The notes beneath the pieces are model-generated. The model was given only the letters and a program-made list of their open reading frames with translations. It did no database searches and was not told where the DNA came from. From an uncultured Erysipelotrichaceae bacterium (lineage in GTDB: Bacteria; Bacillota_I; Bacilli_A; Erysipelotrichales; Erysipelotrichaceae): DNA of 32,000 nucleotides. The translations under genes and the position numbers were made by a program. Of this stretch, positions 2,815 through 22,390 are shown piece after piece (the stretch's first letter is position 1; each line of letters begins with the position of its first letter). Location of the stretch: positions 1 through 32,000 of the forward strand of contig CAYWGS010000001.1 in the NCBI GenBank assembly GCA_964457525.1. The letters run 5' to 3'.

Positions 2815-2845
2815 GCATCTAATGTAAAAGTTAGATGCTCTTTTC
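2815..2845 (-). terminator. Candidate terminator hairpin downstream of the permease gene
   Basis: GCATCTAA (2815-2822), an 8-nt loop, then TTAGATGC (2831-2838). The stronger T-run is on the plus side and the minus-side U tract is weak, so the assignment is tentative. Confidence 0.35.
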
Positions 2846-4248: not shown

Positions 4249-5197
4249 AAAATTCCCCCTCTTTATTTATTGTACTTAAGTCTAACCAAGAGCCCATCTC
4301 AAGTTCTAATTCGTGATCAATAAAGGGCATAAAACCATTAAGATGGAAAAAAGTTAATTCGCCAAAGATTATTTCTCCATCTAGATTATATAAGTCTACT
4401 CTAACATGCGGGAATGATTGTGATAATTGTGTTGCGATCTTAATCATTTGATCAAAGTTTACTGGTTTAGGTAAAATCAGGTTTTGATCATTCTCACACC
4501 AAATATGTACATCTCTGAAGTTCCAATCACAGTCATAGAAATTCTGTTTGTGTTGTCCAAAACGATCTATATCAACTTGGATCAATTTTGGTTGTCCATT
4601 GAAACAATATATCTTATAATCCATCGGAGGATTACCTTGATCATCCGATAAGTATTTCTCAACTACAATTCTTGGTTGAATCGTTTTATAGACCCACTCT
4701 CTACCTTTATAGAAGTAGTTTACCTTCTTCCAGTAATTGATTTTCTTGGTAATGTTTTCAATACTCAACTTAGTCTTATCTTTCACGATAATATTAAATC
4801 CAGAACCATGTGTAGCTTTAATCACAAAGCTTTGTGGTAACTTCTCGATTGGAATGTCTTTCGAATCTGCCACAACACAATAGAGTTCATTGAGATAACG
4901 CTCACCAATGGTTTGTTTAATGTAATCTCTCACGGCATATTTATCTGCACACTTAGGCGCTAGATTATCTCTCCAATAGAGTTTTAACCATTGAAGTTTA
5001 TCGTTGTATAGAATAGGGGACTCTAAATTAACACGTCTTTTTAAACTCAATAGAAATTTTATTCGTATAAAGAATTCATCAGTGATGAAGGTTTTATTAA
5101 ACCATTGAACGATAAGAATCATTTGATGATATATACTCTCTGATTTCTTTAGAATGATTTTTAATTGATTTAGAATTTTCATATCCTTATAATACAA
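4226..5197 (-). CDS. TupA-like ATP-grasp (amidoligase-type) protein
   Basis: 323 aa. YNDKLQWLKLYWRD...KYAVRDYI...IKATHGSGFNIIVKDK matches the ATP-grasp_TupA family layout. The start is either TTG 5197 or ATG 5182. Confidence 0.7.
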   Translation of the reverse strand: MYYKDMKILNQLKIILKKSESIYHQMILIVQWFNKTFITDEFFIRIKFLLSLKRRVNLESPILYNDKLQWLKLYWRDNLAPKCADKYAVRDYIKQTIGERYLNELYCVVADSKDIPIEKLPQSFVIKATHGSGFNIIVKDKTKLSIENITKKINYWKKVNYFYKGREWVYKTIQPRIVVEKYLSDDQGNPPMDYKIYCFNGQPKLIQVDIDRFGQHKQNFYDCDWNFRDVHIWCENDQNLILPKPVNFDQMIKIATQLSQSFPHVRVDLYNLDGEIIFGELTFFHLNGFMPFIDHELELEMGSWLDLSTINKEGEFYGREEVK

Positions 5198-5253
5198 TAT
5201 AGTACTTTACTTAAGGAATTACATATAAATAACATAAGCATTAATCAAATTAA

Positions 5254-5282
5254 TAAGTAATCTAAACAAGATAAGGTATAAT
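5254..5282 (+). promoter_or_regulatory. Candidate promoter for the epimerase gene
   Basis: Perfect TATAAT at 5277-5282, 25 nt upstream of the ATG. The -35 region (TAAGTA) is poor. Confidence 0.3.
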
Positions 5283-5307
5283 AGGAACAATGAAAATGGT
5301 GGGATAA

Positions 5308-6408
5308 ATGAAGAAAATACTAGTAATATTTGGTACTCGACCAGAGGCAATAAAAATGTGTCCACTGGTACTCGAATTAAAAAAACGTACAGAATTTCAA
5401 ACGCTTGTATGTGTAACAGGTCAACATAAACAAATGTTGGATCAAGTGTTAGAGGTTTTTAATGTTGTGCCAGATTATGATTTAGCTATTATGAAAAACA
5501 ATCAAACCTTATTTGATGTGACAACTTCAATTCTTGAACACATCAAAGATATATTAGATGAAGTAAAACCTGATTTAGTGCTTGTCCATGGAGATACAAC
5601 AACAGCGTTCGCAAGTGCACTCGCAAGTTTCTACAATCAAATACCGGTTGGACATGTGGAAGCGGGACTACGAACATTTGATGTCTATTCGCCTTTTCCA
5701 GAAGAGTTTAATCGTCAAGCGATATCCATTATTTCAAAGTTTAATTTCGCGCCTACAGAATCTGCCTATCAGAATCTCATCAATGAAGGCTCTAAGAAAG
5801 AAAGCATTTTTATTACAGGAAATACAGCAATCGATGCGCTAAAATATACCGTTAATCGTACGTATCATCATGAAATATTTGATTGGCTACAAAATGATCG
5901 TCTTATATTAATTACGGCTCATCGAAGAGAAAATTTGGGTCAACCTTTAGTCAATATGTTTAAAGCGATTAAACGAGTCATGGATGAGTATCCGGATTTA
6001 AAAGCGGTTTATCCGATTCATATGAATCCAAAAGTTAGAAAAGTTGCGAATGAAATATTGGGAGATTCAGATCGAATTCGAATTATTGAACCACTCGATG
6101 TATTAGGTTTTCATCAATTTATGGCAAAGTCCTACCTCATTTTAACAGACAGTGGCGGTATACAAGAAGAAGCCCCAAGTTTAGGCAAACCTGTATTAGT
6201 GATGCGTGATACAACAGAAAGACCAGAAGGGATTCAGGCTGGAACACTTAAATTAGTGGGTACAGAAGAAGAATATATTTATCATTCTTTCAAGGAATTG
6301 ATCACAAATCCTGAAGCGTATAATCGAATGGCAAATGCCAATAATCCATATGGAGATGGTTTCGCAAGTCAGAAGATTGCGGATATCATCATTGAAAAAC
6401 TTATTTAG
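5308..6408 (+). CDS. wecB: UDP-N-acetylglucosamine 2-epimerase (non-hydrolysing)
   Basis: 366 aa. MKKILVIFGTRPEAIKMCPLV, VHGDTTT, HVEAGLRT, LILTDSGGIQEEAPSLGKPVLVMRDTTERPEG are hallmark WecB/MnaA motifs. Confidence 0.92.
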   Translation: MKKILVIFGTRPEAIKMCPLVLELKKRTEFQTLVCVTGQHKQMLDQVLEVFNVVPDYDLAIMKNNQTLFDVTTSILEHIKDILDEVKPDLVLVHGDTTTAFASALASFYNQIPVGHVEAGLRTFDVYSPFPEEFNRQAISIISKFNFAPTESAYQNLINEGSKKESIFITGNTAIDALKYTVNRTYHHEIFDWLQNDRLILITAHRRENLGQPLVNMFKAIKRVMDEYPDLKAVYPIHMNPKVRKVANEILGDSDRIRIIEPLDVLGFHQFMAKSYLILTDSGGIQEEAPSLGKPVLVMRDTTERPEGIQAGTLKLVGTEEEYIYHSFKELITNPEAYNRMANANNPYGDGFASQKIADIIIEKLI

Positions 6409-6431
6409 AAGGCAATATTTGTCTTCTTTTT
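6407..6431 (+). terminator. Rho-independent terminator after wecB
   Basis: 8-bp stem AGAAGGCA/TGTCTTCT with one G-U pair, a 5-nt loop and a T-run through 6431. Confidence 0.6.
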
Positions 6432-6441
6432 AATGTATAAA

Positions 6442-6472
6442 TTTACACCGTTTATTAGTAGTATGGTATAAT
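6442..6472 (+). promoter_or_regulatory. Extended -10 promoter of the nine-gene envelope operon
   Basis: TTTACA (6442-6447), a 19-nt spacer, then TGgTATAAT (TG 6464-6465, hexamer 6467-6472). Confidence 0.5.
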
Positions 6473-6526
6473 TCAAAAAATAAGTCATATTAAACGTATA
6501 TATGAGATAAGGGATCTGGGGGATCA

Positions 6527-7327
6527 ATGAAGAAAGAAAGAGAAACGCTTAAAAGACAAATACGTTTTTCACATACGTATCGACATTTAAGAGTAGAGAA
6601 GCTAAAACAAAACCTGTATTTATGGTTTGTAATATTGCCATTATTTATTGTGCTTTTATTGAATTATGACAAACTAAGCTTATTTATCTCTGAGTTTGTT
6701 AGAAATATATTATCGACAGTTATTCCTCTATCGGATATGACGATCGTATCTTCATCGTTTATTCCGTATCTAGGAGATATCCATTACATTAGTCTACCAA
6801 CTGCGATTTATCAAAGCGGTTTAAATCTAATTACATTATTGATATCAGTTCTATTGTTTATCTTTGTATCAACAGGTAGAAGAAAAGGGCATCCATTTAG
6901 TATCTTTATTGAGATGGGTTTGTTTGTACAAATTATATCTTGTATCTTTTTTCTTTTTGCCTCAAATGATTTTCCTTATACAGCTACCATTTATTCAGAA
7001 CTCTACATTAAGCAACAAATCAGTTTATGGTTGTTCTTTTTTGTGATTATTGGATTGGTAACCGTATTATTAGGAAGTGGTTATTTTGTTTATAATCTGG
7101 TGTTTGTCCTTAAAATTATCAGTTACTCGTTCATTTATGGCGTACTACGATACATCACGTATTTATTTATTGTGAGCCAGATTTCAACCATCTATATGGC
7201 AACCTTATTCTTTACGCTTGGGCCATTATTTGATTTCTTGTATATTACTTATTTCTATGGTCGATATGTCAGTCGTATTATTGAGGTCAATGAGTCTAAA
7301 GAAAGTGAGGATATTTGGCAATGGTAA
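6527..7327 (+). CDS. Polytopic membrane protein (about 6-7 TM), family not recognised
   Basis: 266 aa and strongly hydrophobic. A GGGGGA RBS is present. The 3' end overlaps the GT2 start by 13 nt. Confidence 0.7.
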   Translation: MKKERETLKRQIRFSHTYRHLRVEKLKQNLYLWFVILPLFIVLLLNYDKLSLFISEFVRNILSTVIPLSDMTIVSSSFIPYLGDIHYISLPTAIYQSGLNLITLLISVLLFIFVSTGRRKGHPFSIFIEMGLFVQIISCIFFLFASNDFPYTATIYSELYIKQQISLWLFFFVIIGLVTVLLGSGYFVYNLVFVLKIISYSFIYGVLRYITYLFIVSQISTIYMATLFFTLGPLFDFLYITYFYGRYVSRIIEVNESKESEDIWQW

Positions 7328-8592
7328 TCAACTTTCTAAAGGGCTTTATGATCTTCTCTGTTATTTATATGTTAATTTATGCCATTCGACATATGGTGTA
7401 TTCTTTTAGTCGTATGTTTGGTAAACAACGTAAATACTATGATGATATTTATACCAGCGAAATGCCAAGTATATCGGTACTTATCCCAATGTATAACGAA
7501 GAAAAAGTATTGGATAATGTTCTCGATTCATTGGTTGCCTGTGAATATGATCGTGATCGTTTAGAGATTATTCCAATCAATGATTCATCTACAGATCGTA
7601 CAAAAGAATTGTTGGATGCTTATCATGCACGATATGAATTTATTCGTCCAATTCATCGTAATTCAAGTTTAAGAGGTAAACCTGCTGCGCTTAATGATGC
7701 GATGAAGATTGCTAAAGGTGACATTATTATCGTGTTTGATGCGGATTATCGTCCCAATAAGTATATGTTAAAACAGTTAGCTCTTGCCTTTTTAGATCCT
7801 GCGACAGGTGCGGTAATGGGACGTGTTATTCCATACAATTCCAGTAAGAATTTACTCACTCGTTTGCTTAGTTTAGAAAGAGCGGGTGGATATCAAGCTG
7901 ACCAACAAGCACGATACAACATGGGAACACTTCCACAATATGGGGGTACCGTTGGTGGTTTTAGACGTGAACTCGTTATGGAATCCGGTGGATTTAACCC
8001 ATATGTATTAGCAGAGGATACAGAACTAACCTTTAGACTTTACTTAAATGGTTGGAAGATTGTGTATGCGAATTCCGCTGAATGTTATGAAGAGGTACCT
8101 GAGACCTATGCAATTCGCGGTAAACAAGTTCGTCGATGGTCGCGTGGTCATAATAATGTGGCAATTCGATATTTCTTCCCGTTGTTGTTTTCAAAGAATC
8201 TAAAATTATTTGAGAAGTTGGACGGTTTATTACTCCTACTTATTTATATGGGTCCAACCATCTTTATGTTTAGTTTTATTATTTCATTGATTCTATTCTT
8301 CAGTGGTGAGATGAACTTAATCTCTACATGGTGGGTTCTTATATTCATTGGTGCGACCAATTCACTGGGCAACTTTGCGCCTTTCTATGAGATTTCTGTT
8401 GCGGTAATTGTCGATGGTAAGAATAACGATATTAAACTCGTTCATTTAATGTTATTTAGTTTCTATTATTATGTATGGCATATCTCACTTGGTTTCTTTG
8501 AAGCAATCATCGATCTCGTCACAAAACGACATGTTAAGTGGAATAAAACGGATCGATTCTTGGTTAAACCTAAAGATGGAGGTGCAAAATGA
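7315..8592 (+). CDS. Processive family-2 glycosyltransferase (membrane-embedded polysaccharide synthase, PgaC/IcaA/BcsA-core-like)
   Basis: 425 aa. One N-terminal TM and several C-terminal TM segments. Motifs: VLIPMYNEE, NDSSTDRT, FDAD (DAD 7738-7746), LAEDTELTFRL, QVRRWSRG (Q-x-x-R-W at 8125-8139). Confidence 0.88.
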   Translation: MAMVINFLKGFMIFSVIYMLIYAIRHMVYSFSRMFGKQRKYYDDIYTSEMPSISVLIPMYNEEKVLDNVLDSLVACEYDRDRLEIIPINDSSTDRTKELLDAYHARYEFIRPIHRNSSLRGKPAALNDAMKIAKGDIIIVFDADYRPNKYMLKQLALAFLDPATGAVMGRVIPYNSSKNLLTRLLSLERAGGYQADQQARYNMGTLPQYGGTVGGFRRELVMESGGFNPYVLAEDTELTFRLYLNGWKIVYANSAECYEEVPETYAIRGKQVRRWSRGHNNVAIRYFFPLLFSKNLKLFEKLDGLLLLLIYMGPTIFMFSFIISLILFFSGEMNLISTWWVLIFIGATNSLGNFAPFYEISVAVIVDGKNNDIKLVHLMLFSFYYYVWHISLGFFEAIIDLVTKRHVKWNKTDRFLVKPKDGGAK

Positions 8593-10340
8593 TTTTAATC
8601 TATGGACTTATCATTATCTATGTCATTTTATTAATCCTACCCTTGTTAGGTGGTTTAATTTCGTATCTTAAGGATAAAGCTCAACCAATTCATATTGATC
8701 AAACTCGTATAAAAGATCCACGTTATTTTGCGAAGTCGTTTACGCGTTTATTTAATGAAAAATGGGAGAATTATGATCGTAAAAGTGATTTGTTCTTCTC
8801 CAAGAAAGAGAAAGTCATCTTAGCAGATGAAACAGAAATCTTTGAAGAAGAGTGTAATGGAATCGTAGTGGCAGAACGTCATGACTTTATTCCAAATCAA
8901 AATATTAATTTTAATAAGGAAATAATGTCATTAAATCACGCATATGTTTATGGTGATATTCAACTACGTGCCTTAAAATCCCAAAAGGATTGTGTCTTAG
9001 GCAAAGGTATTAATGTCGTTCGTTGGGTGGATGCGGAAGGTTATCTTCTGGTTCATGATCACTGTAATCTTGGATTAAGTGCGAGTAGTGCAAGTGTATT
9101 AACAGTTGGCAAGAATGTAAACTTTAAGCGACTTTATGCCCCTATTATTAACTTAGGGATGACTAAAATCGTTCCTCACGGTCATTCAAGTTATAAGTAT
9201 GCATTAGTTCCTTCATTAGTACGCAAACATGAACATGACATAAATGATTCTATGGTTGATGAAAATCGCATAGCGAACTTTTCTGTTGTATCCAAGAAGG
9301 AAGTTCTAATTCATGAAAATATAACCTTACAAGGACATATCCATTCGGACAAAGGAATAAGAATTCAAGATAACAGTTTTATCTGTGGGAATGTTTTCGC
9401 AAATAGAGATATTTATGTTGGAAAGAATGTTGTGATACTCGGGAATGTATTTACCCATGGGAATATCTATTGTGAAGATGGCGTTACCATCGGTCAGGAA
9501 CATCACACCAGTTCGATTGTTGCTGGTGGTAGAATTGATTTCAGCTTAAATTCAATGGTTTATGGTTATGTTCACAGTGAAGAAGGTGGAGTTGTTTATA
9601 AACTAAGTATTTCTGATGATGATATTCGAAATGAAGTGGCGAATGAGGAACGTCGTTATGGAATTAGTGAAGAAGATAAACTTCATCATGTTGCACATAC
9701 GATGAATGAATATAATTATGAACATCCTGTTGGATTTAGGTATGATTTATCCTTAACTGAAGTCATTATTCCAGAAGGTGTTGAGTTCATACGCAGAAGT
9801 ATGTTCTTTGGTTGTAAAAATCTTGTAAAAGTTGTTATTCCAAAAAGTGTTAGAGTCATTGAAGACTATGCCTTTTTCGGTTGTGAAAGTTTAAAAGAGA
9901 TTGAGTTTGAATCATCCATTCATATTCAATCAATTGGTAAATCTGCTTTTGAGAATTGTACATCTTTAGAGAATTTTGTTCTTCCTGAGTTTGTAAGAAA
10001 AATAGAATCCAGTACATTTTCAAATTGTAGAAATCTCAAAAACATAACCATTCATAAAGACGCTTATCTAGACACAATTGATAGTCATGCCTTTAAGGAT
10101 TGTGTTAGCTTAGAACAATTTATCTGTCCAGATTTTGTAAGTTCACTTGGACAAAGTGTTTTCTATGGCTGTATTAATTTAAAAGAGATTCATTTACCTA
10201 AAGCCTTATTGTGCTTGGGTGATTATGCGTTCTATCAATGTGATCAAGTCAATTCTAAAAATATAAGTAAAGAAATACTTAATCTTATGAAAAAATCAAA
10301 AGGAAATCCAGATTGGGCAGAGGAAGTTAATTATGCTTAA
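8589..10340 (+). CDS. Single-TM protein with a bactofilin-like beta-helical middle region and seven C-terminal BspA-type leucine-rich repeats
   Basis: 583 aa. N-terminal TM MILIYGLIIIYVILLILPLLGGLISYL. The middle region reads GNVFANRDIYVGKNVVILGNVFTHGNIYCEDGVTIG. LRR units follow. A GGAGG RBS is present and the ATGA start overlaps the GT2 stop. Confidence 0.75.
   Translation: MILIYGLIIIYVILLILPLLGGLISYLKDKAQPIHIDQTRIKDPRYFAKSFTRLFNEKWENYDRKSDLFFSKKEKVILADETEIFEEECNGIVVAERHDFIPNQNINFNKEIMSLNHAYVYGDIQLRALKSQKDCVLGKGINVVRWVDAEGYLLVHDHCNLGLSASSASVLTVGKNVNFKRLYAPIINLGMTKIVPHGHSSYKYALVPSLVRKHEHDINDSMVDENRIANFSVVSKKEVLIHENITLQGHIHSDKGIRIQDNSFICGNVFANRDIYVGKNVVILGNVFTHGNIYCEDGVTIGQEHHTSSIVAGGRIDFSLNSMVYGYVHSEEGGVVYKLSISDDDIRNEVANEERRYGISEEDKLHHVAHTMNEYNYEHPVGFRYDLSLTEVIIPEGVEFIRRSMFFGCKNLVKVVIPKSVRVIEDYAFFGCESLKEIEFESSIHIQSIGKSAFENCTSLENFVLPEFVRKIESSTFSNCRNLKNITIHKDAYLDTIDSHAFKDCVSLEQFICPDFVSSLGQSVFYGCINLKEIHLPKALLCLGDYAFYQCDQVNSKNISKEILNLMKKSKGNPDWAEEVNYA
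9762..10250 (+). repeat. Seven tandem 23-25-aa BspA/LRR_5-type repeats encoded inside CDS 8589..10340
   Basis: Units: VIIPEGVEFIRRSMFFGCKNLVK / VVIPKSVRVIEDYAFFGCESLKE / IEFESSIHIQSIGKSAFENCTSLEN / FVLPEFVRKIESSTFSNCRNLKN / ITIHKDAYLDTIDSHAFKDCVSLEQ / FICPDFVSSLGQSVFYGCINLKE / IHLPKALLCLGDYAFYQCDQV. Confidence 0.8.
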
Positions 10341-11382
10341 ATCTAAAACGATGAGTTTTATACTCCTTATCCTATTTCTTGGTGTAAGTGTCCTATTCAC
10401 GATGGTTAATAATTCGATGAAACTAAGCTCTCCAGAAAATACGATTATTGAGGAAAAAGTTGGATTAAAGGGATTACCCTACGGTGTTGAGTTATCCCAA
10501 ACGATTCTATTAGAAGATGATTTATATATCTATTATGAAGATCGAATTGTGGAGAAGTATTTTAATGATTCTAGTATCAATAAAGAATCGATTGAACGTA
10601 TAAATTTGTTCTTCAATTCATTACCTGATTCCATTCATAAAACAATTTCTTTAACCCCAATGGCAATAACCTATGAGAATGTTAAGGTAAATCAAGATTC
10701 TATTGAAGCACAATCTGAGATAAAAGAAGGTTTAAACTCAAACATCAATTGGATTGATATTCATCCAATATATGAATCAAAAAAGGAAGAGTACTTATAC
10801 TTCCGTACAGATCCCCGAATTACGAGTTTAGCCGCGTATTATATTGCTCAAGAGTTTCTATCTACGAAAGGCATTAACATCATTCCTTTATCCGATTATC
10901 GAGAAGATCGTAGGGCAAAGGTATCTGGTATTTATATGTATTTACCAGGCTCACCTTTAAACCCAAGTCATGAAGATACAGTAGTGAGTTATTTCCTTGA
11001 TGGAGCCACAAACCATCAGCTTGTGACAACTCGTAAATCGGATGATGTGACTGAAACCTTTGAATCCCCAACGATTGCGATTTCTCGACGAGGTTTAGAT
11101 ATATTTGTTGAGAGTAACTTATCAGATTCAATTCTCTATGGAGATGGAACAGATAATACAATTATCGTGATTGGAGATTACAACGCAAAAGTAGTGAGCA
11201 CTTGGTTAACACCTTACTATGAACATGTGATTGTGATTAACTCTGCTTTCTATACAAAGTCACAATCAGAATTCTTTGAATTATTTGAAACGTATAATAT
11301 TACAGATGTATTGTTAGTAGAATCGATTAAGAATATCGGTGATTTGAGTGAGAATAGTAAATTGAAACGTATCTATGAGTAG
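10333..11382 (+). CDS. Membrane-anchored exported protein, DHHW/AlgX-AlgJ-like with a degenerate catalytic motif
   Basis: 349 aa with an N-terminal anchor SFILLILFLGVSVLFTMV. LYFRTDPRITSLAAYYIAQEF aligns by eye to the family signature Y-x-K-T-D-H-H-W-T-x-x-G-A-Y-x-A, with DHHW replaced by DPRI (10810-10821). Confidence 0.6.
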   Translation: MLKSKTMSFILLILFLGVSVLFTMVNNSMKLSSPENTIIEEKVGLKGLPYGVELSQTILLEDDLYIYYEDRIVEKYFNDSSINKESIERINLFFNSLPDSIHKTISLTPMAITYENVKVNQDSIEAQSEIKEGLNSNINWIDIHPIYESKKEEYLYFRTDPRITSLAAYYIAQEFLSTKGINIIPLSDYREDRRAKVSGIYMYLPGSPLNPSHEDTVVSYFLDGATNHQLVTTRKSDDVTETFESPTIAISRRGLDIFVESNLSDSILYGDGTDNTIIVIGDYNAKVVSTWLTPYYEHVIVINSAFYTKSQSEFFELFETYNITDVLLVESIKNIGDLSENSKLKRIYE

Positions 11383-11397
11383 TAATAGGAGCTTATT

Positions 11398-12006
11398 ATG
11401 AGTCAAAGTCTTATTGAATTATTCCACTATTTTAGCCAAGTTACACGACTCGATTTAACTTCTTTTAATTCGCTTCCAATCAATTTATTTTTAAGTTTAT
11501 TCTTTTGCTTATGTGCTTTCTTTGGTTATAAATCAGTACGATATCTATTCTCTTTAATAATATTTACTCTCACAATACGACTTATAACCTTCATCTTAGA
11601 AGGTAGAACAGAGTGGATTTACATCGCTACTACATTCTCTGTATTATCCGTTGTGTTTGCATTTATGGCTTATTTCTCAAAACGAATAAGTGTGTTAGTT
11701 GTGGTTGGGTTATTGGTTTTTGGTAGTTTAAATGCATTTAATCTACATTGGATATTTGTTTTATTCATAAGTATTGGTTTAGGTCTTATCGCATATTTCT
11801 ATCCACTGATAACAGTGATACTTATTACAAGTACACTCGGTTCTTATGAATTATTACAGGGTATGGATTATTCAAACTCCAATTACATCTATATGCTTAT
11901 TGGTTTAATCATCATTAGCCTCTTATTTCAGTTTCTAAGTAATCAAGAAGGAAGAGTCTTTCTTAAAAAGATCAAAGGTAAATTGTATGGATCAAGTTTA
12001 TCGTAA
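11398..12006 (+). CDS. Polytopic membrane protein (about 5-6 TM), family not recognised
   Basis: 202 aa and hydrophobic throughout. An AGGAG RBS is present. The 3' end overlaps the VTC gene start by 20 nt. Confidence 0.65.
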   Translation: MSQSLIELFHYFSQVTRLDLTSFNSLPINLFLSLFFCLCAFFGYKSVRYLFSLIIFTLTIRLITFILEGRTEWIYIATTFSVLSVVFAFMAYFSKRISVLVVVGLLVFGSLNAFNLHWIFVLFISIGLGLIAYFYPLITVILITSTLGSYELLQGMDYSNSNYIYMLIGLIIISLLFQFLSNQEGRVFLKKIKGKLYGSSLS

Positions 12007-12664
12007 AGAACTTAAATATGTTATTTCACTTGAGAAAGTGTTTCGAATACGAAACCGATTATCTTCTTTTTTAGACTATGACACCTATTCAAATGAAGAG
12101 GGATATATCGTTCGAAGCTTATATTTTGATTCGATTAACGACAAGGATCTATTTGATACATTATATGGATTAAATGATAAACACAAAATTCGATTACGAA
12201 TTTACTCAGTTCATGATCAACAAGTCAAACTAGAATGGAAACGTAAAACAGGTTCAGATTCACATAAGGTTACTCTAATCATTACAAGAGAGAATGCGGA
12301 ATCGATGATAAATGGAGATTATGAGTTTCTTAGATCGATGGAAAATGATCAAGCACTTTCAATCTATCACATTTTGAAAAGAGAAGCGTATAGTCCAAGA
12401 ACGATTGTGGAATATAAACGTGTTGCGTATGTGCATCCAATAAGCAATATCAGAATATGTTTTGATTATCAACTTAAGGCGAGCTTAACACCCTTTAATT
12501 TCTTTGAAGAAAACATTGGGGTTTTACCAATCTTATCCGTTGATCAAGCTGTATTAGAAGTGAAATACGATGATTATCTACCGACATTGATTAAGGAAGT
12601 TCTATCACCGATGGATGAATTATCACAAGCAAACAGTAAATACGTTCAAGCAAGAATGTTATAA
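11987..12664 (+). CDS. VTC-domain (polyphosphate polymerase-type, triphosphate-tunnel) protein
   Basis: 225 aa with no TM. RKELKYVIS...GYIVRSLYFDS...HKIRLRIY...VKLEWKRKTG...LEVKYD matches the bacterial VTC (PF09359-type) pattern, including alternating acidic/basic tunnel strands. Confidence 0.75.
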   Translation: MDQVYRKELKYVISLEKVFRIRNRLSSFLDYDTYSNEEGYIVRSLYFDSINDKDLFDTLYGLNDKHKIRLRIYSVHDQQVKLEWKRKTGSDSHKVTLIITRENAESMINGDYEFLRSMENDQALSIYHILKREAYSPRTIVEYKRVAYVHPISNIRICFDYQLKASLTPFNFFEENIGVLPILSVDQAVLEVKYDDYLPTLIKEVLSPMDELSQANSKYVQARML

Positions 12665-12676
12665 AAGGAGAAAAAT

Positions 12677-13348
12677 ATGAATGATTTGATACAACAGTTT
12701 TTACTAAATGACCAATCACTTAGTACGACAACAATTCTCATTAATAATAGTGTCGCATTGGTTGGGGCTTTGTTTATTATGTTTACATACAAAGCGAGTT
12801 ATTCAGGTTCAGCGTATAGTCGTAAGTTCAATGTTTCCTTAGGGATGATTACACTCATTATTACAATGATTATGAGTTTAATTAGCAGTAATATTGCATT
12901 GTCCTTAGGTTTAGTTGGTGCTCTTTCCATTATCCGTTTCAGAACAGCGGTTAAGGATGTTAGAGATGCGACATTTATCTTCTGGTCCATTGCTTTAGGG
13001 ATTGGATGTGGTGTATCTGAATATTTACTCGTAAGTATTGGATCTTTATTCATCTTTGTTTTCCTTATTCTTCTTAAACAACTTGGGACAAATGAAAGAC
13101 ATTTACTCGTAGTTCGTTGTCAAGCAAACGCTCAAAGTCGTGTTGAAAGTATCGTAAGTGAAACCTTTAAGAAGGATGCTCGTTTATCAATGAAAAATGC
13201 AACACCAAACAGTGTTGAATATGTTTACGCTTTAGTGGAATGGGATAAGAAGTCTAAAAACAAAGCAAATATTGTGGAAAGCTTGCTTAAAGTTGAAGGC
13301 GTTCTTAATGTAAATCTTGTAGAACAAACGGATGATATTGGTCGTTAA
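12677..13348 (+). CDS. DUF4956-family membrane protein
   Basis: 223 aa. The membrane half carries LGLVGALSIIRFRTAVKDVRDATFIFWSIALGIGCG, the DUF4956 signature as I recognise it, followed by a soluble C-terminal domain. An AAGGAG RBS is present. Confidence 0.7.
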   Translation: MNDLIQQFLLNDQSLSTTTILINNSVALVGALFIMFTYKASYSGSAYSRKFNVSLGMITLIITMIMSLISSNIALSLGLVGALSIIRFRTAVKDVRDATFIFWSIALGIGCGVSEYLLVSIGSLFIFVFLILLKQLGTNERHLLVVRCQANAQSRVESIVSETFKKDARLSMKNATPNSVEYVYALVEWDKKSKNKANIVESLLKVEGVLNVNLVEQTDDIGR

Positions 13349-13351
13349 CAA

Positions 13352-14713
13352 ATGAAAAAAATTATTGGACTCGGTTTGATACTCTTATTTTTAGGAAGCT
13401 CATGGATTGGGGGATTTTTCGTTGCGGAAGATCACAAAACTCAACCTGCTCAAACAGTCCTACCTTGTGATGTTAATTGTACAAATCTTCCAATTATCCT
13501 GATTGATACTAAGGGTGAAGTTATTAAAAAGGATTCTAAGGTCAATGTCGAAGTTAAGGTCATAGATAATGAAGATAAGAATTCGATTGAACTAACACCA
13601 GATTTTATCAGTGACGCAACAATTAAGTATCGTGGTAATTCATCCTATGGTACTTTTGATAAGTTTCAATATCGTGTTGAGTTCTTTGATGATATTGCGA
13701 AAGATGATAAGCGCAATTATCCATTGTTTGGCATGACTAGAGAGAGTGATTGGGTCTTATATGGTCCATTCTTAGATCGAAGTTTATTACGTAATCGACT
13801 CATGTATGGCTTATCCAAAGATTTACTTGAATGGGCACCGGATACACGTTTCTTTGAACTCTATGTAGATGATGAATATCAAGGGGTATATCTTGCGGTT
13901 GAACCCATCACAGCGAGTGAAAATAGAATTGGTTTAAATCAGTTTGGGCTATTATCAGGAGAAACACCTTATATTGTTCGAAGAGATCGTGTTGGGACGA
14001 ATCATCAAGTAATACAAACGTATGGAGAAATAATGGGATACACCTCAAATGAGTTGAGTATCGATTATCCAGGTATAAATAATCTTACATCCCAACAATA
14101 CGATTGGATTACACAGGATGTTAGTCGATTTGAAGAGACACTTTATTCAGATTATTTTGATCATCCTGAACTCGGTTATGAACACTTAATAAATATGTCT
14201 TCATTCGTGGATTACTTTATTCTCAATGAATTTGCGATGATTACGGATTCAAGTGAATTATCTACATATGTATATAAGGATCTTGGTGGTAAATTAACTT
14301 TTACAGTCTGGGACTTTAATAATGGGTTTAATAATTATCAATGGACAGATCAATCGTATGAACGCTATTTTAACTTAGATGCGAACTGGTTTGATCGACT
14401 TATTCAAGATCGTAAGTTTGTCAGTTCTATTGTGGAGCGTTATCGTACATTACGTAAGGGAATACTCAGTGATGCTGCACTCATGAATCGAATTGATCAA
14501 GAGGTCTTAGACTTAGGAGATGCGGTCAATCGCAACTTTGAAGTCTGGGGCTACACGTTTAATCAAAATCTTTTATCTAAGGATAGTAATGGATTAATAC
14601 GTGATCCTAAATCATATGAAGACGCAATCAATCAATTAAAGGATACGATTCTAAAACGACTCAATTATATGGATAATACGATAGAAGATTTGTATACTTA
14701 TTGTATTAACTGA
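13352..14713 (+). CDS. CotH-family atypical kinase-like protein, exported or membrane-anchored
   Basis: 453 aa with an N-terminal hydrophobic anchor KIIGLGLILLFLGSSWIGGFFVA. IKYRGNSSY...FQYRVEF, DWVLYGPFLDRSLLRNRLMYGLS, YVDDEYQGVYLAVEPI, VWDFNNGF are CotH (PF08757-type) blocks. Confidence 0.8.
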   Translation: MKKIIGLGLILLFLGSSWIGGFFVAEDHKTQPAQTVLPCDVNCTNLPIILIDTKGEVIKKDSKVNVEVKVIDNEDKNSIELTPDFISDATIKYRGNSSYGTFDKFQYRVEFFDDIAKDDKRNYPLFGMTRESDWVLYGPFLDRSLLRNRLMYGLSKDLLEWAPDTRFFELYVDDEYQGVYLAVEPITASENRIGLNQFGLLSGETPYIVRRDRVGTNHQVIQTYGEIMGYTSNELSIDYPGINNLTSQQYDWITQDVSRFEETLYSDYFDHPELGYEHLINMSSFVDYFILNEFAMITDSSELSTYVYKDLGGKLTFTVWDFNNGFNNYQWTDQSYERYFNLDANWFDRLIQDRKFVSSIVERYRTLRKGILSDAALMNRIDQEVLDLGDAVNRNFEVWGYTFNQNLLSKDSNGLIRDPKSYEDAINQLKDTILKRLNYMDNTIEDLYTYCIN

Positions 14714-14719
14714 TAAACA

Positions 14720-15913
14720 ATGAGAAAAACAAAAATAAGTGTCACAATTATATTCGTATTACTACTCTTATTGAGTAGTTTTTTCCTTTATCGAAAGAAT
14801 GCTCAAGAAAAGATACCAGTATATCAATTAGAGATTAATTATTATCAAAGTATTATTCATCATGAACAGGCTTGGTTAGATTCAACTCAACTAGATAATG
14901 GAGCGTATCCATTTAGACCCCTTGTAAACAATCGTGCAGATGTAAATCCATATTTCTCATCCATGGCTGCCTATAGTCTATTACTTGGGAACACCTTTTA
15001 TTCAGATAATGTGTATGAATACATGGCTTGGTTATTTACCCAATTGAATACAAGTTCAGAAGATCCTTATCAAATCGATGGAACACTCAGTAATATACGT
15101 ATGACTCAAGAGAATGGTCAAATCAACGAAGAGAAGTTTGACTATGATTCAGTTGATTCCTATACTGCATTATTCATAATTCTGTTAGATTATGCTTATG
15201 ATACCGATCCTAGATATGAGTTCTATCAAACCAATGAAGGATCGATCATACGTTTGTTCAAAGCTTTATTATCAACTCGTGCTGAGAATGGATTATCCTA
15301 TGTGAGTGTTGGAAATAAAACACAATATACCATGGATAATGTGGAAGTAAACTATGCCATTAAAAAGGGGATTAACCTTTTAAACAATTTACTTGAACTA
15401 TCCAATAATCAAGAACTTAAAGAGATACAAATAGAACTTGAAGAATGGTTAATTGATAATACACAAGCCATAGAAACAATTCTATGGAATCCTGCCCAAC
15501 AGAAATATCGTATCGCAATCGATAAGAATGGAAATGAAGTAGAATTTAAATCATGGGATAATTTCTATCCAGATGCGATGGCACAATTATTTCCAATTGT
15601 ATTCAATGTAATCGAACCAGACTCAGAGCGAGCGAAAGAACACTACATACAATTTGTATCGAACTATTCATGGGAAGATTTCAAGTTCAGAGAAGGATTC
15701 TATTGGACTGTTGTTTCAACGATTGGCGCAATGATGGATGATACTGAGAGAGTTAAGACTTATTTAGATTACTATCAAGAACATATTATGAGTAATCATG
15801 ATTATCCAATCTACAATGCGGAAGTTGCTTGGATTATTCAGACTTGTCAAATTATGATCGATAAGTATGAAGATAAAATTGACCAAGTCGATCCATTAAA
15901 ACTCTTTCACTAA
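14720..15913 (+). CDS. Membrane-anchored exported protein of unknown function (possibly an alpha/alpha-toroid, glycan-active fold)
   Basis: 397 aa with an N-terminal anchor ISVTIIFVLLLLLSSFFLY. The AWLDSTQLDNGAYPF motif is reminiscent of alpha/alpha-barrel repeats, so the fold call is weak. It is the last gene before the hairpin at 15912. Confidence 0.6.
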   Translation: MRKTKISVTIIFVLLLLLSSFFLYRKNAQEKIPVYQLEINYYQSIIHHEQAWLDSTQLDNGAYPFRPLVNNRADVNPYFSSMAAYSLLLGNTFYSDNVYEYMAWLFTQLNTSSEDPYQIDGTLSNIRMTQENGQINEEKFDYDSVDSYTALFIILLDYAYDTDPRYEFYQTNEGSIIRLFKALLSTRAENGLSYVSVGNKTQYTMDNVEVNYAIKKGINLLNNLLELSNNQELKEIQIELEEWLIDNTQAIETILWNPAQQKYRIAIDKNGNEVEFKSWDNFYPDAMAQLFPIVFNVIEPDSERAKEHYIQFVSNYSWEDFKFREGFYWTVVSTIGAMMDDTERVKTYLDYYQEHIMSNHDYPIYNAEVAWIIQTCQIMIDKYEDKIDQVDPLKLFH

Positions 15914-15936
15914 AAGATATTGAAAAATATCTTTTT
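15912..15936 (+). terminator. AT-rich terminator hairpin closing the nine-gene operon
   Basis: AAAAGATAT (15912-15920), a 6-nt loop, then ATATCTTTT (15927-15935). The T tract is largely inside the stem and there is only one G-C pair, so the terminator is of modest strength. Confidence 0.4.
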
Positions 15937-15992
15937 AAATATAGAGTGTTATGTTACTATATCACTATACGATATATCACGAGGCGAGTGTC

Positions 15993-16310
15993 ATGGAAAT
16001 TTCACCATCATTATTTTATTTTCTATTAGTACTCAGTAATCCACTCCATGGATATCAAATCATGCAAGAAGTGGAGAAAGCATCTGGTGGGCAAATCACG
16101 ATGGGGGCAGGTACCTGTTATGGGCTAATTGCTCGTTGTCAAAGTGAGAAACTCATTGATTTAATCGAGGAAGTGGATCGAAAAAAGATCTATCGAATTA
16201 CGAGTAAGGGGAGAGCTTTACTTCAGGGTGAAATTAATCGATTAAATAAGCAATTAGAGATGACTCGAAAATATGCGGAGGAAAATCATGTTAGAAGTCT
16301 TAAAGTATGA
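15993..16310 (+). CDS. PadR-family transcriptional regulator
   Basis: LLVLSNPLHGYQIMQEV...GTCYGLIARC...IYRITSKGRALL is a typical PadR winged helix. I prefer ATG 15993 (GAGG RBS 7 nt upstream) over the ORF-track start at 15951, which lies in the promoter region. Confidence 0.8.
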   Translation: MEISPSLFYFLLVLSNPLHGYQIMQEVEKASGGQITMGAGTCYGLIARCQSEKLIDLIEEVDRKKIYRITSKGRALLQGEINRLNKQLEMTRKYAEENHVRSLKV

Positions 16311-17331
16311 CCCTTATTTACAAACTGAACAATGTGAGAAATGGCTAAGAGAAAAAGCAGCACAAGGTTACTTTATACGTAAGCTAAATTCGGACAGTAT
16401 TTATGTTCAATTTGATCAAGCTGAACCCAAACAGGTTTATTACGCTATTTTCTATGATTCGAGTCGAAAATTTAACACTTCAGAATTTATCGATGTTTTA
16501 TTTGAACAAGGATGGGACTTAGTTGGAAAGAGTAAATCTTACAACCCAATCTACTTATTCATGAATGAGTCAGAACATCCTATACCAATTGAAACGGATC
16601 TATCCGTAATGGAGTTTAAACAAAAGAAATTACTTAAGTCATTTGTATTAAACTTTATTCTTGCGCTAATCGTTATACTTATGAACATGTATACCTGGTA
16701 TAAGGGGATATACAATTACTTCTCAATCCTTATTTATGTCTATCTCAGTTATAGTTACTTTCTTGATTTATTTCGTTTCATCATGATTCGTAAGTCTCAA
16801 GAAATAAAAGATAAAGCAGTAAAAATAATTCGAATTGGACGAAGAGTTGCGGGATTTGTATCCATCATCGCATTTATTCTAATCTCATTAAGATACATGG
16901 AAGTTAAACAAATAAATGTGAATGAGAATAACTTAGTTCATCTTGATAATAAATCGTTAATCAATGAGACGTATACAAAGAGTATGTTTAGTCTTAATCC
17001 AAACTATACATCCTTCTATATTATTGAAAATGACAATAGTTTAAATCAAATTGTATATCAAACAAAATTGAACGTTTCATGGTTAAATCCTACAAACTTT
17101 GAGAAATATGTAAGTGATCAAACACCCTATCTAAAGTATGGAAATCCACAAAAATATGATCGTATTGAAAGTGATTTGGACCAGTTTGATGACATAATCA
17201 TGTACCAATCAGAAAATAAACAAGAATTTTATACATTTATTCAGTTAAACAAGGTAATTTATACACTACATACGATTAATCTAAATCAAGATGAACATCA
17301 AAAGTTATTATTAGAATTAGGGGAAAAGTAA
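16288..17331 (+). CDS. DUF2812-type membrane protein (the usual PadR partner) with a C-terminal extracellular extension
   Basis: YDPYLQTEQCEKWLREKAAQGYFIRKLN is the DUF2812 N-terminal signature, and there are central TM helices. I prefer ATG 16288 (GGAGG RBS), which overlaps the padR 3' end. Confidence 0.7.
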   Translation: MLEVLKYDPYLQTEQCEKWLREKAAQGYFIRKLNSDSIYVQFDQAEPKQVYYAIFYDSSRKFNTSEFIDVLFEQGWDLVGKSKSYNPIYLFMNESEHPIPIETDLSVMEFKQKKLLKSFVLNFILALIVILMNMYTWYKGIYNYFSILIYVYLSYSYFLDLFRFIMIRKSQEIKDKAVKIIRIGRRVAGFVSIIAFILISLRYMEVKQINVNENNLVHLDNKSLINETYTKSMFSLNPNYTSFYIIENDNSLNQIVYQTKLNVSWLNPTNFEKYVSDQTPYLKYGNPQKYDRIESDLDQFDDIIMYQSENKQEFYTFIQLNKVIYTLHTINLNQDEHQKLLLELGEK

Positions 17332-17964
17332 ATGAGACAAACAATTAATATTGTGCTTGTTGTGATTATGTCATTTATCTTGAGTTCAACACGTTTCTTT
17401 AATACCAATGTCTATGATGTGACTACGGGTAGAGATTATAATTTGAAATATCAAATACGACCTACAACAGATTCATTTCTTAATACGGATAGTCCTTGGT
17501 CATCCATTGATTTTACCCCGGTAGAATATGATATGAGTTGCTTGATTTCTCGTGATCGATGGATGAGTAATAACTTAGTAGATGAATCAAATAAGAAGAT
17601 AATCTGGAGTCGTGTTTATGAATACGATCACAACAATTGCCCGCCACAAGTACTTCCGAGCATCTATGAACAAGTAAATATTATGGTGAGTGATAATCCG
17701 ATGGCGGGATATCCAAGCTATACTAATTTCAAAGAAGAGAGTACATATATCAGTGATTTAGGGATACCAGTATGGCTTGATTATGATAATGAAAATTTTA
17801 CCAATCAAGGTAAGATGTATACCTATAAAAAATATAAGTATAGCTTTATCATTGATCAACACTATTTCTTTATGGATACGGTAACAATGAACTCAGATTG
17901 GCCTATTGAGTATCTTCTGGATACAGTGGATCATGTCTACGAACAAATCAATCAATCTAAATAA
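17332..17964 (+). CDS. Membrane-anchored or secreted hypothetical protein
   Basis: 210 aa with an N-terminal hydrophobic segment INIVLVVIMSFILSS. The ATG directly abuts the preceding TAA. No family recognised. Confidence 0.55.
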   Translation: MRQTINIVLVVIMSFILSSTRFFNTNVYDVTTGRDYNLKYQIRPTTDSFLNTDSPWSSIDFTPVEYDMSCLISRDRWMSNNLVDESNKKIIWSRVYEYDHNNCPPQVLPSIYEQVNIMVSDNPMAGYPSYTNFKEESTYISDLGIPVWLDYDNENFTNQGKMYTYKKYKYSFIIDQHYFFMDTVTMNSDWPIEYLLDTVDHVYEQINQSK

Positions 17965-17991
17965 CATTACCTTTGAGTAATGTTATTTATT
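17962..17991 (+). terminator. Rho-independent terminator
   Basis: TAACATTAC (17962-17970), a 6-nt loop, GTAATGTTA (17977-17985), then TTTATT. Confidence 0.5.
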
Positions 17992-18035
17992 GTAAAGAGA
18001 AAAAGTGATAAAGTAGTAAAAAGAGGATACTGTAT

Positions 18036-19694: not shown

Positions 19695-19701
19695 TTTTAT
19701 T
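19673..19701. terminator. Bidirectional terminator spanning both convergent stop codons
   Basis: 12-bp perfect stem AATAAAATCAGC (19673-19684) / GCTGATTTTATT (19690-19701) with a GAAGA loop. T-rich tracts follow on both strands. Confidence 0.6.
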
Positions 19702-20293
19702 CTTTATTTAACCATTTTTTAACCGCATTCAATTCAGATTCAGAAATACGATGTCCATTGTTTTCCCAATGAAGGGTTACATTCGCATGTGCTTTCGTTA
19801 ATAATTCATTCATTTGAATGCTTTGTTCAGGTGGACATATTGGATCATTCTTACCAGCCCCAATAAATACAGAAACTAAACTTAAGTCTGGTAGTTCTTT
19901 TCTAATTGGAACCATTGGATGAAGTAGAATTGCTTTACTAAAACCATCCGCATAGTGAAATAGAATACTTGCCGCAATATTTGCGCCATTGGAGTAACCG
20001 AGAGCCACAACCTTAGTACGATCAAACCCATAATCTATCGCAGCTTGATCGACAAATTCTTTTAATTGATGCGTACGATAAACGAGATCTTCCTCATCAA
20101 ATACACCTTCCGCAAGTCGTTTAAAGAATCGATTCATACCATTTTCTTGGACTTCACCACGAACACTTAATACATTGTAGTTGGGTTGAATAAAATGAGC
20201 GAGAGCGAGTAGATCTTTCTCATCTCCTCCTGTACCGTGAAGTAATAAAAAGGTAGGATTACTTAGATTTTCTTTATGAAAAATATGTTTCAT
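19697..20293 (-). CDS. Phospholipase/carboxylesterase-family alpha/beta hydrolase (MhqD-like)
   Basis: 198 aa. FLLLHGTGGDEKDLL and the nucleophile elbow GYSNGA. The ATGA start overlaps the MarR stop. Confidence 0.8.
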   Translation of the reverse strand: MKHIFHKENLSNPTFLLLHGTGGDEKDLLALAHFIQPNYNVLSVRGEVQENGMNRFFKRLAEGVFDEEDLVYRTHQLKEFVDQAAIDYGFDRTKVVALGYSNGANIAASILFHYADGFSKAILLHPMVPIRKELPDLSLVSVFIGAGKNDPICPPEQSIQMNELLTKAHANVTLHWENNGHRISESELNAVKKWLNKE

Positions 20294-21691: not shown

Positions 21692-21717
21692 GTTAGTCTC
21701 CTTTGTAAGATGATTCA

Positions 21718-21746
21718 ATATTAGTTCGAATTCGAACTATTATCAA
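21718..21746 (-). promoter_or_regulatory. Promoter of the dioxygenase-marR-hydrolase operon
   Basis: On the minus strand: TTGATA (21746-21741), a 17-nt spacer, then TAATAT (21723-21718). Confidence 0.55.
21722..21739. promoter_or_regulatory. Perfect 18-bp palindromic operator TAGTTCGAATTCGAACTA
   Basis: A 9+9 inverted repeat that occupies the -35/-10 spacer of the promoter above. The operon it controls encodes a MarR protein. Confidence 0.6.
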
Positions 21747-21837
21747 TTAATATGCTCACAAAGAGAATGAACTTGTTTCATCTTGACGCAAAAGGTATTA
21801 TTTGAATAAGGAATAAACCAGAAGGGATAACGATACG

Positions 21838-22368: not shown

Positions 22369-22390
22369 AATCAATGCATCAAAACCATTC

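Follow-up and report, generated by a model that had tools for sequence, protein, structure and literature searches.

A probable synthase-dependent polysaccharide locus with a new core shares the phosphate accessory module of Gram-positive Pel systems

We analysed a stretch of 32,000 nucleotides from an uncultured Erysipelotrichaceae bacterium (assembly GCA_964457525.1, contig CAYWGS010000001.1, positions 1 to 32,000; hereafter the window), in which nine consecutive open reading frames (ORFs) join a processive family 2 glycosyltransferase (GT2) to genes for a VTC-domain protein, a DUF4956 protein and a CotH-family kinase (Table 1). The locus is a synthase-dependent system with a new core, and it shares the phosphate accessory module known from Pel loci. 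The nine genes probably form a conserved machine for a surface or matrix polysaccharide. Synthase-dependent exopolysaccharides, such as cellulose, poly-beta-1,6-N-acetylglucosamine (PNAG), alginate, Pel and Pss, are central to biofilms, and new types of machine in Gram-positive anaerobes are rare. The carriers of this one include common human-gut Lachnospiraceae and Oscillospiraceae (Blautia, Dorea and Bariatricus).

A three-gene core and its distribution

The nine ORFs occupy positions 6527-15913, all on the plus strand. The ORF listing returned the coordinates, overlaps and gaps exactly as an earlier interpretation of this DNA from its letters alone (the sequence-only reading) had given them. 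Neighbouring ORFs overlap at four junctions (13, 4, 8 and 20 nt) and are separated by 15, 12, 3 and 6 nt at the others; a purine-rich ribosome-binding site precedes most of the nine starts. The Pfam scan recovered all of the families that had been expected, namely GT2, LRR_5, bactofilin (weak), DHHW (partial), VTC, DUF4956 and CotH.

The assignment of ORF2 as the synthase rests on several lines of evidence. Pfam placed it in Glycos_transf_2 (1.6e-30), and the best NCBIfam match was PgaC_IcaA (TIGR03937; 146.3 bits, 1.2e-42, nearly full length, against a cut-off of 422.3). In a PDB profile search, the GT2-family profile matched BcsA (4HG6, 2e-15, residues 36-330) through the Q-x-x-R-W region. 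The D-x-D (D142/D144), ED (E234/D235) and Q-x-x-R-W (Q271/R274/W275) motifs, which the sequence-only reading had picked out, were found and were invariant in an alignment of 18 family sequences. Transmembrane (TM) segments lie on both sides of the catalytic domain. More than 5600 homologous proteins were found at E <= 1e-20; the 120 best listed were 63-98% identical, most of them 63-70%, and the source labels on the homologues read 'poly-beta-1,6-N-acetylglucosamine synthase-like'. Wzx, Wzy, a chain-length regulator and a priming phosphoglycosyltransferase were absent from the scanned ORFs, which covered the window except for a few flanking ORFs of 100-153 aa. With a processive GT2 and no Wzx/Wzy-type family among the scanned ORFs, the synthase-dependent logic proposed earlier holds.

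We scanned a collection holding one genome per species with the GT2 as anchor. This returned 252 matching stretches, of which the best 80 loci were fetched; the counts of 61 given below refer to the loci in which 8 kb or more of sequence follow the GT2. ORF1 and ORF3 appear to be obligate partners of the GT2 because both were present in 61 of 61 loci, and we infer subunit roles for them from this association. The machine would then have two obligate co-subunits, ORF1 and the beta-helix of ORF3, without detectable relatives. ORF1 had no Pfam or PDB relative, even when a 42-sequence profile was used. ORF3 matched LRR_5 in Pfam (1e-42), and its AlphaFold2 (AF2) model (predicted local distance difference test (pLDDT) score 87.9) comprised a TM helix, two beta-helical blocks and a leucine-rich repeat (LRR) domain of the TpLRR/BspA type. 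The Foldseek matches of the model were confined to the LRR part. The beta-helix profile gave no significant PDB match, and left-handed beta-helix acyltransferases appeared only below the threshold. The LRR is missing in the Thermanaerosceptrum locus (L003) and is a separate gene in two others (L066 and L073), from which we predict the LRR domain to be dispensable and the beta-helix to be the conserved part of ORF3. A K/R-rich stretch past the TM helix suggests that the bulk of the protein is cytoplasmic. A bactofilin identity for ORF3 was rejected, as the Pfam match was weak and under the cut-off.

Conservation extended beyond the core. The genes for VTC, DUF4956 and CotH (hereafter the triad) followed in this order and on the same strand in 44 of the 61 loci, with DUF4956 always between VTC and CotH, and 43 of these 44 loci also had the DHHW gene (ORF4). 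ORF9 was present in 39/61. A homologue of the wecB-type epimerase gene that precedes the operon in the window was linked on the same strand in 39/61 as well, often within the operon in the interval between CotH and ORF9. Gene calls showed that the gene order of the window recurs in Bariatricus massiliensis and in one metagenome contig. A second scan was anchored on the VTC alignment and run against metagenome contigs; this GT2 family was found in 32 of the 36 loci with enough upstream sequence. Given the counts from the two scans, the GT2 half and the triad half co-travel, and their adjacency is not peculiar to this genome, so the sequence-only reading passes the check that it had set itself on this point. 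The three-gene core of ORF1, GT2 and ORF3 is also able to stand alone: Thermanaerosceptrum, Negativicutes and Nitrospirota carried it by itself, with or without ORF9 and the epimerase. Granulicatella balaenopterae and Phascolarctobacterium faecium are cultivable species that have the core alone, while Bariatricus massiliensis AT12, Blautia glucerasea and Dorea amylophila are cultivable carriers of the operon.

The carriers among the 80 fetched loci were Lachnospiraceae, Oscillospiraceae, Blautia, Dorea, Bariatricus, Butyrivibrio, Granulicatella, Negativicutes and Nitrospirota. The closest genome was an unclassified 'Bacillota bacterium' metagenome-assembled genome (MAG; L005), with 90% GT2 identity, and one contig (L085) was 99.5% identical to window positions 4872-22451. 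Loci of the GT2 family also occurred in MAGs labelled Micrarchaeota archaeon, Niabella, Sphaerochaetaceae and Nitrospirota/Nitrospiraceae (L029, L069, L042, L078, L081, L083 and L084). The first two of these labels probably reflect binning contamination. The Nitrospirota loci, which hold the core, ORF9 and an epimerase of 44-46% identity, look like true distant carriers or horizontal transfers.

The accessory module in Pel loci and in a third context

The sequence-only reading had held that none of the characterised synthase-dependent systems includes a VTC protein, DUF4956 or a CotH kinase. This claim failed, since Gram-positive Pel loci have them (PMC7112168, PMC12345266). Whitfield et al. 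(2020) described how, in streptococci and clostridia, pelDEADAFG is directly joined by four accessory genes, namely cotH, 'poly-phosphate polymerase', DUF4956 and DUF4832; in bifidobacterial Pel loci a diguanylate cyclase/phosphodiesterase gene takes the place of DUF4832 (PMC7112168). In Streptococcus intermedius (2025), deletion of the CotH gene (SIR_1594) or of the MgtC/DUF4956 gene (SIR_1592) lowered Pel and aggregation, and the DUF4832 protein was an active hydrolase (PMC12345266). The window locus and the Gram-positive Pel locus with these accessory genes (SIR_1591-1594 in S. intermedius) have in common a Firmicute host and a synthase-dependent operon followed contiguously by a VTC-domain protein, a DUF4956/MgtC-like protein, CotH and a membrane-anchored glycoside hydrolase. 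They differ in the synthase, which in Pel is PelF (GT4) with PelG, PelD, PelE and PelA and here is the GT2 with the orphan proteins ORF1 and ORF3. Neither Pfam nor NCBIfam found a Pel family in the window operon, and the GT2 is its sole glycosyltransferase. The hydrolase differs as well, being a DUF4832 TIM barrel in Pel and an (alpha/alpha)6 barrel here, and the decayed DHHW protein and the TM198-like protein (ORF5) are extra relative to the Pel locus.

The authors of the S. intermedius study stated that the three-gene synteny was not found outside Pel loci (PMC12345266). That statement does not hold, given the GT2 loci described above and a third context that came from several VTC-anchored loci without this GT2. 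There, a small polytopic membrane gene is followed by VTC, DUF4956, CotH, MBOAT, an AlgX-like gene and a 780-aa BcsA-like GT2 with PilZ. In appearance the cluster is a cellulose-like system with acetylation, equipped with the same phosphate module. A GGDEF gene stands in front of it in L158, and in L156 a second VTC-DUF4956 pair follows the synthase. As the triad occurs with this GT2, with Pel and with the BcsA-like GT2-PilZ synthase, it is a portable accessory module found with three unrelated synthase types. Its presence on at least three synthase types points to a role in a generic step of exopolysaccharide handling, probably a phosphate-related one. CotH, VTC and DUF4956 matter in Pel without an explanation there, and our data show that the triad is not Pel-specific. 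The present locus offers simpler genetic systems and natural comparisons with and without the module. In Clostridium perfringens, NELoc-2 also brings together VTC-domain proteins, CotH, a glycosyltransferase and a deacetylase.

The Listeria monocytogenes Pss system (pssA-E, pssZ) is likewise synthase-dependent and from a Firmicute. By its published description it has a PgaC/IcaA-like GT2 (PssC) and a dedicated glycosidase, and its backbone is beta-1,4-linked N-acetylmannosamine (ManNAc), the sugar that the wecB linkage suggests here. Pss has a BcsB-like protein, PssD, and a degenerate-GGDEF receptor for cyclic di-GMP (c-di-GMP), PssE (PMC4125290), and it has no VTC, DUF4956, CotH or DHHW genes. 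Membership in Pss was rejected because no BcsB or GGDEF domain was found in the nine proteins. Our literature search found no description of the ORF1-GT2-ORF3 cluster, which agrees with the earlier proposal of an undescribed system as far as the core is concerned; the triad was already known beside Pel.

Table 1. Features of the locus and of the third context. Coordinates are window positions unless a locus is named.
Feature	Coordinates	Strand	Description
ORF1	6527-7327	+	266 aa, polytopic membrane protein, at least 5 TM segments
ORF2	7315-8592	+	Processive membrane GT2 synthase; start probably ATG 7321
ORF3	8589-10340	+	TM helix, beta-helix (about 76-336) and LRR domain (380-560)
ORF4	10333-11382	+	Membrane-anchored extracytoplasmic DHHW protein, decayed catalytic site
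ORF5	11398-12006	+	202 aa, 6 TM segments, TM7S3/TM198-like
ORF6 (VTC)	11987-12664	+	Stand-alone cytosolic VTC protein, 225 aa, triphosphate-tunnel, Vtc4-like
ORF7 (DUF4956)	12677-13348	+	MgtC-like membrane protein with C-terminal cytoplasmic domain
ORF8 (CotH)	13352-14713	+	Secreted or anchored atypical kinase of the CotH family
ORF9	14720-15913	+	Membrane-anchored (alpha/alpha)6 six-hairpin glycosidase-like protein
wecB/mnaA-type gene	5308-6408	+	Non-hydrolysing UDP-GlcNAc 2-epimerase; TIGR00236, 5.6e-155, above cut-off
Terminator-like hairpin after wecB	6407-6427	+	9-bp stem and T-run; folding free energy (dG) -8.9 kcal/mol, z = -4.06 vs shuffles
Promoter-like element	6442-6472	+	TTTACA 6442-6447, 19-nt spacer, extended -10 TGgTATAAT 6464-6472
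AT-rich hairpin closing the operon	15912-15936	+	dG -8.8 kcal/mol, z = -2.67 vs shuffles
Third-context loci	L156 8001-19735; L158 8467-18199; also L151, L154, L153, L157, L160		VTC-anchored, this GT2 absent

Accessory proteins, proposed mechanism and rival explanations

ORF4 gave a partial match to PF14286 (DHHW; 1.7e-12), and its profile matched 4NZK (3e-45), PatB1 (5V8D, 3e-13) and also AlgJ and AlgX in the PDB. It belongs to the SGNH-like DHHW/AlgJ/PatB family, which is also represented in the O-acetylation pairs of alginate (AlgI/AlgJ/AlgF/AlgX) and of Bacillus cereus (PatA/PatB). However, ORF4 reads TDPRIT where TDHHWT is expected and GDYNAK where GDSxGN is expected, and with the catalytic His and Ser lost it cannot be an acetyltransferase by the known mechanism. 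The catalytic Asp-His-Ser triad was lost in 96 of the 104 ORF4 homologues examined, counts that include redundant metagenome contigs. All eight homologues with an intact catalytic triad had an MBOAT gene in the locus, and it lay directly upstream of the intact DHHW gene in both gene maps checked (L066 and L073). This minority resembles the alginate and Pat pairs, whereas the window ORF4 is decayed and no MBOAT gene was found in the window. In the loci without MBOAT, the catalytic triad was degenerate in every case (93/93), and 87 of these 93 carried the VTC triad. From these associations, ORF4 is best read as a pseudoenzyme travelling with the phosphate module, probably serving as a glycan-binding adaptor. 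Here the loss of MBOAT goes together with a decayed DHHW catalytic triad and with the module, which provides a concrete case of pseudoenzyme recruitment. In the loci with MBOAT and an intact DHHW gene (L066 11287-16531, L073 11167-15942, and L063), ORF3 was split into a gene for the TM helix and beta-helix and an LRR_5 gene, and no ORF5-like gene stood ahead of VTC.

Most triad loci have, immediately ahead of VTC, a gene for a membrane protein of about 200 aa and 4-7 TM segments. In the window this is ORF5, which is translationally coupled to VTC via the 20-nt overlap. Ten of 29 ORF5 family members matched PF13886 (TM7S3/TM198-like; best E 1.2e-7), and ORF5 is accordingly a putative fast-evolving TM198-like membrane protein. 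The window ORF5 itself, like ORF1 and ORF9, had no Pfam match.

ORF6 matched PF09359 (VTC; 1.4e-31) and consists of the VTC domain only, with no TM segment. Single-sequence PDB searches with VTC and with CotH gave nothing or a marginal match, and family profiles were required. The VTC family profile matched Vtc4 (3G3Q, 2.7e-4), and the invariant residues R6/E8/K10, R69/R71 and E83/K85/K87 aligned with matching basic or acidic residues of that structure; a second, low-scoring segment placed E191/K193 on the EVK motif of Vtc4. The aligned positions are taken as the known catalytic residues of Vtc4. R145, R156/D160 and S217/K218 were further invariants of the family. On this alignment, ORF6 is a probable polyphosphate polymerase. 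It shares with the yeast VTC complex the catalytic domain family PF09359, the conserved tunnel residues and co-encoded membrane proteins. The yeast protein is fused to SPX and TM domains, whereas the window protein stands alone and its partners, DUF4956 and the TM198-like protein, are unrelated to Vtc1-type TM proteins. A lumenal or extracytoplasmic consumer of the VTC product, as with yeast VTC, is plausible.

ORF7 matched PF16316 (2e-15), MgtC (1.2e-5, weak) and NF007431 (1.5e-5, residues 66-214), and the S. intermedius homologue has been described as an MgtC TM domain with an ACT domain (PMC12345266). We regard DUF4956 as a candidate membrane partner or channel for VTC; other literature on DUF4956 consisted of transcriptome table entries only. 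ORF8 matched PF08757 over the whole model (6e-51, HMM positions 1-322 of 322), and the CotH family profile matched CotH 5JD9 over the N-lobe only (6e-13). Two aspartates, D299 and D321 (WD motif), are invariant in the family and lie 22 residues apart, and the catalytic D228 and D251 of Bacillus subtilis CotH lie 23 residues apart (PMC7821199). Catalytic competence of ORF8 is probable on this comparison. The N-terminus carries a hydrophobic segment for export or anchoring. No gene for a Ser-rich CotB/CotG-like substrate was found among the operon translations. The CotH of the Zetaproteobacteria stalk literature was set aside as an unrelated SH3-CotH protein.

The AF2 model of ORF9 (pLDDT 92.7, predicted template modelling score 0.90) showed an N-terminal membrane helix and an (alpha/alpha)6 barrel. 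It gave 61 Foldseek matches in the PDB at E <= 1e-3, and those listed were mainly six-hairpin glycosidases, including MmpH (7QSJ), GH63, GH76 and the GH8 enzyme CMCax. The acidic residues D143, D146, D206, E209 and D341 are invariant. By its modelled fold, ORF9 is probably the resident polymer hydrolase. We rejected the idea of ORF9 as the DUF4832 hydrolase of Pel loci, since Pfam assigned it to no family and it folds as an (alpha/alpha)6 barrel where DUF4832 is a TIM barrel. The ORF9 homologue of Bariatricus, like that of a few further loci (L001 19777-21278; also L010, L016, L023 and L046), is followed by a gene of at least 553 aa with a weak match to the purple-acid-phosphatase N-terminal domain; such a phosphoesterase may have a bearing on an operon linked to phosphate. 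In six loci (L073 18881-21001; also L033, L039, L060, L063 and L066), the place of ORF9 after CotH is taken by a protein of about 700 aa for which Pfam gave no match.

Upstream of the operon, wecB is a probable precursor gene for UDP-ManNAc. The linkage of an epimerase in 39/61 loci suggests a polymer containing ManNAc, and we lean slightly towards that composition. A TupA-like ATP-grasp gene (PF14305, 2.2e-55; 4226-5197, minus strand) and an amino-acid permease gene (2845-4248, minus strand) are divergent from wecB. The only other locus in which the ATP-grasp gene adjoins the epimerase gene is L005 (62% identity); in this lineage its product could decorate the polymer with an amino acid.

In our proposal, the GT2 would polymerise a UDP-N-acetylhexosamine and thread the chain through the membrane, and ORF1 and ORF3 would fill the roles held elsewhere by PgaD/IcaD, BcsB or PelD/E/G. 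wecB would supply UDP-ManNAc, giving a polymer with beta-linked ManNAc. ORF4, ORF5, VTC, DUF4956 and CotH would form an optional five-gene accessory module. Within it, the cytosolic VTC protein would make polyphosphate from ATP at the membrane; DUF4956, perhaps with ORF5, would hand the phosphate polymer to the outside in the manner of the yeast VTC complex; and the secreted CotH would modify an extracytoplasmic target, in the simplest case the nascent glycan that the non-catalytic ORF4 holds. ORF9 would trim or release the polymer. The sequence-only reading had already supposed a glycan that is phosphorylated or co-produced with a phosphate polymer, and this supposition is consistent with the data because the VTC tunnel residues are intact and the CotH aspartates are conserved. 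The three-step mechanism of VTC synthesis, hand-over by DUF4956/ORF5 and phosphotransfer by CotH to the glycan, for which the basis is synteny, conserved residues and predicted locations, is tentative and will more probably prove wrong than right. A bolder version is a doubtful one: the TM198-like protein, VTC and DUF4956 would together be a polyphosphate synthase-translocase, the polymer would be the phosphoryl donor for CotH or would itself be grafted by CotH, and CotH would phosphorylate the exopolysaccharide held by ORF4. If true, the module would be a portable way of energising a modification outside the membrane, where ATP is lacking, and neutral synthase-made glycans (the polymer of this GT2, Pel and cellulose-like chains) would be turned anionic.

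Several points weigh against this reading of the locus. The core occurs without the triad in 17 of the 61 loci, so polymer synthesis does not require the module. Unlike Vtc4, the window VTC protein has neither an SPX nor a TM domain, and polyphosphate synthesis by bacterial VTC-domain proteins is putative here. The direct alignment with the solved CotH structure did not extend to the C-lobe. CotH is established as an ATP-using protein kinase, and to our knowledge neither a glycan substrate nor a polyphosphate donor has a precedent in its family. wecB is also used for the linkage units of wall teichoic acid, and in the window it is a separate transcription unit. Finally, the positive-inside rule is the sole ground for the topology given to ORF3, and the presumed single transcript of the nine genes is read from their overlaps.

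The main alternative to glycan phosphorylation is that the triad is regulatory. CotH would then phosphorylate a protein of the machinery or of the surface and so switch polymer production or export, while VTC and DUF4956 would sense phosphate or energy. Every characterised CotH is a Ser/Thr protein kinase (PMC7821199), Whitfield et al. proposed regulation through protein phosphorylation for Pel (PMC7112168), and the lowered Pel of the CotH and DUF4956 mutants (PMC12345266) agrees with such a role, as does the make-up of DUF4956 from an MgtC-like part and a regulatory-looking C-terminal domain. However, the export or anchor segment of CotH implies action outside the cell, where ATP is scarce, and the operon has no gene for a Ser-rich CotB/CotG-like substrate. 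In addition, a decayed, probably glycan-binding DHHW protein that co-occurs strictly with the triad fits glycan handling better than signalling. We therefore consider a regulatory triad improbable, though it deserves to be kept in view.

An unlikely explanation is that the product is a wall-attached glycopolymer, either a secondary cell wall polysaccharide or a teichoic-acid-like polymer, to which the phosphate module gives phosphodiester chemistry or anionic character. ManNAc supplied by wecB/mnaA is typical of the linkage units of Gram-positive wall polymers, PatB1 (5V8D), the relative of ORF4, decorates a secondary cell wall polysaccharide, and the ATP-grasp gene beside wecB in the window and in L005 is of the teichuronopeptide type. 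The locus nevertheless has no LCP ligase, no priming enzymes of the TagO/TagA type and no ABC or Wzx exporter. Furthermore, among proteins with solved structures or curated models, the GT2 stands nearest to processive synthases that make free exopolysaccharides, and the same triad accompanies Pel, a matrix polymer.

It is still less credible that the locus is a divergent PNAG system of the Pga/Ica type, with poly-beta-1,6-GlcNAc as its polymer. PgaC_IcaA was the best NCBIfam model for the GT2 (1.2e-42), which the source labels of the homologues echo; the architecture of N-terminal TM segment, catalytic domain and C-terminal TM segments is the same, and the PNAG synthase (PgaCD, IcaAD(BC)) likewise needs a small membrane partner that is encoded with it. 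At 146 bits, however, the match is far under the 422-bit equivalog cut-off. PNAG systems have a CE4 deacetylase (PgaB/IcaB), IcaC and apparently unrelated partner proteins; here Pfam found neither the deacetylase nor IcaC. ORF1 (266 aa, at least 5 TM segments) is larger than the two-TM PgaD/IcaD, a comparison made by size and TM count, and the frequent in-operon UDP-GlcNAc 2-epimerase points to ManNAc. On the score and on the lack of a deacetylase family in the nine proteins (Pfam, NCBIfam), PNAG membership was rejected.

That the GT2 half and the triad half lie side by side without any functional connection is effectively refuted: although 17/61 loci have the core without the triad and the triad also occurs beside other synthases, order and strand are kept in 44/61 and 32/36 loci across Clostridia families, overlaps couple the genes translationally, and a polysaccharide synthase adjoins the triad in every context found.

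Transcription signals and flanking genes

The start of ORF2 is more likely ATG 7321 than TTG 7315, because GAGGA lies 10 nt upstream of the ATG and the closest homologue has 423 aa; the overlap with ORF1 is kept with either start and is 7 nt if ORF2 begins at the ATG. The extended -10 promoter that the sequence-only reading had placed ahead of ORF1 is present as an element (Table 1), but its role as a promoter could not be distinguished from background, as promoter-like matches were not enriched in the region (44 vs a shuffle mean of 63). Our consensus scan accepts spacers of 16-18 nt and did not list the element because its spacer is 19 nt. It is a plausible candidate promoter. The terminator-like hairpin after wecB speaks for the nine genes having a transcription start of their own. 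The hairpin proposed to close the operon also exists; it was not listed by the terminator scan because that scan demands at least three G-C pairs. Upstream of the operon, Rfam gave no riboswitch, either in the window or in the five relatives scanned.

Control of the operon by c-di-GMP is possible, though the association with GGDEF genes is inconsistent. Pfam found no PilZ or GGDEF domain in the nine operon proteins, and GGDEF genes are near only a minority of loci. Beginning 2.1 kb past the operon is a gene for a 552-aa membrane protein whose GGDEF motif is intact (18036-19694, plus strand); it is conserved in L085 and is preceded by PadR, DUF2812 and an unknown 210-aa gene. GGDEF genes also occur upstream of ORF1 in Thermanaerosceptrum (L003) and in Blautia-like loci. 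In L004, tandem c-di-GMP-I riboswitch aptamers (19156-19243 and 19404-19489, plus strand; 75 and 70 bits) lie immediately past the nine-gene operon and ahead of Flp/Tad pilus genes, which suggests that co-located surface-structure loci are controlled by c-di-GMP there.

Directly past the closing hairpin, a PadR-family regulator gene and a DUF2812 gene overlap by 38 nt (15951-17331, plus strand); neither gene flanks the operon in any other locus. Further downstream (24086-30995, plus strand) are genes for the subunits of an Fe-S fumarate hydratase, malic enzyme and methylaspartate mutase (glmS/glmL/glmE), and the G+C content climbs from about 0.33 to 0.37-0.41. The host probably lives by anaerobic fermentation of glutamate.

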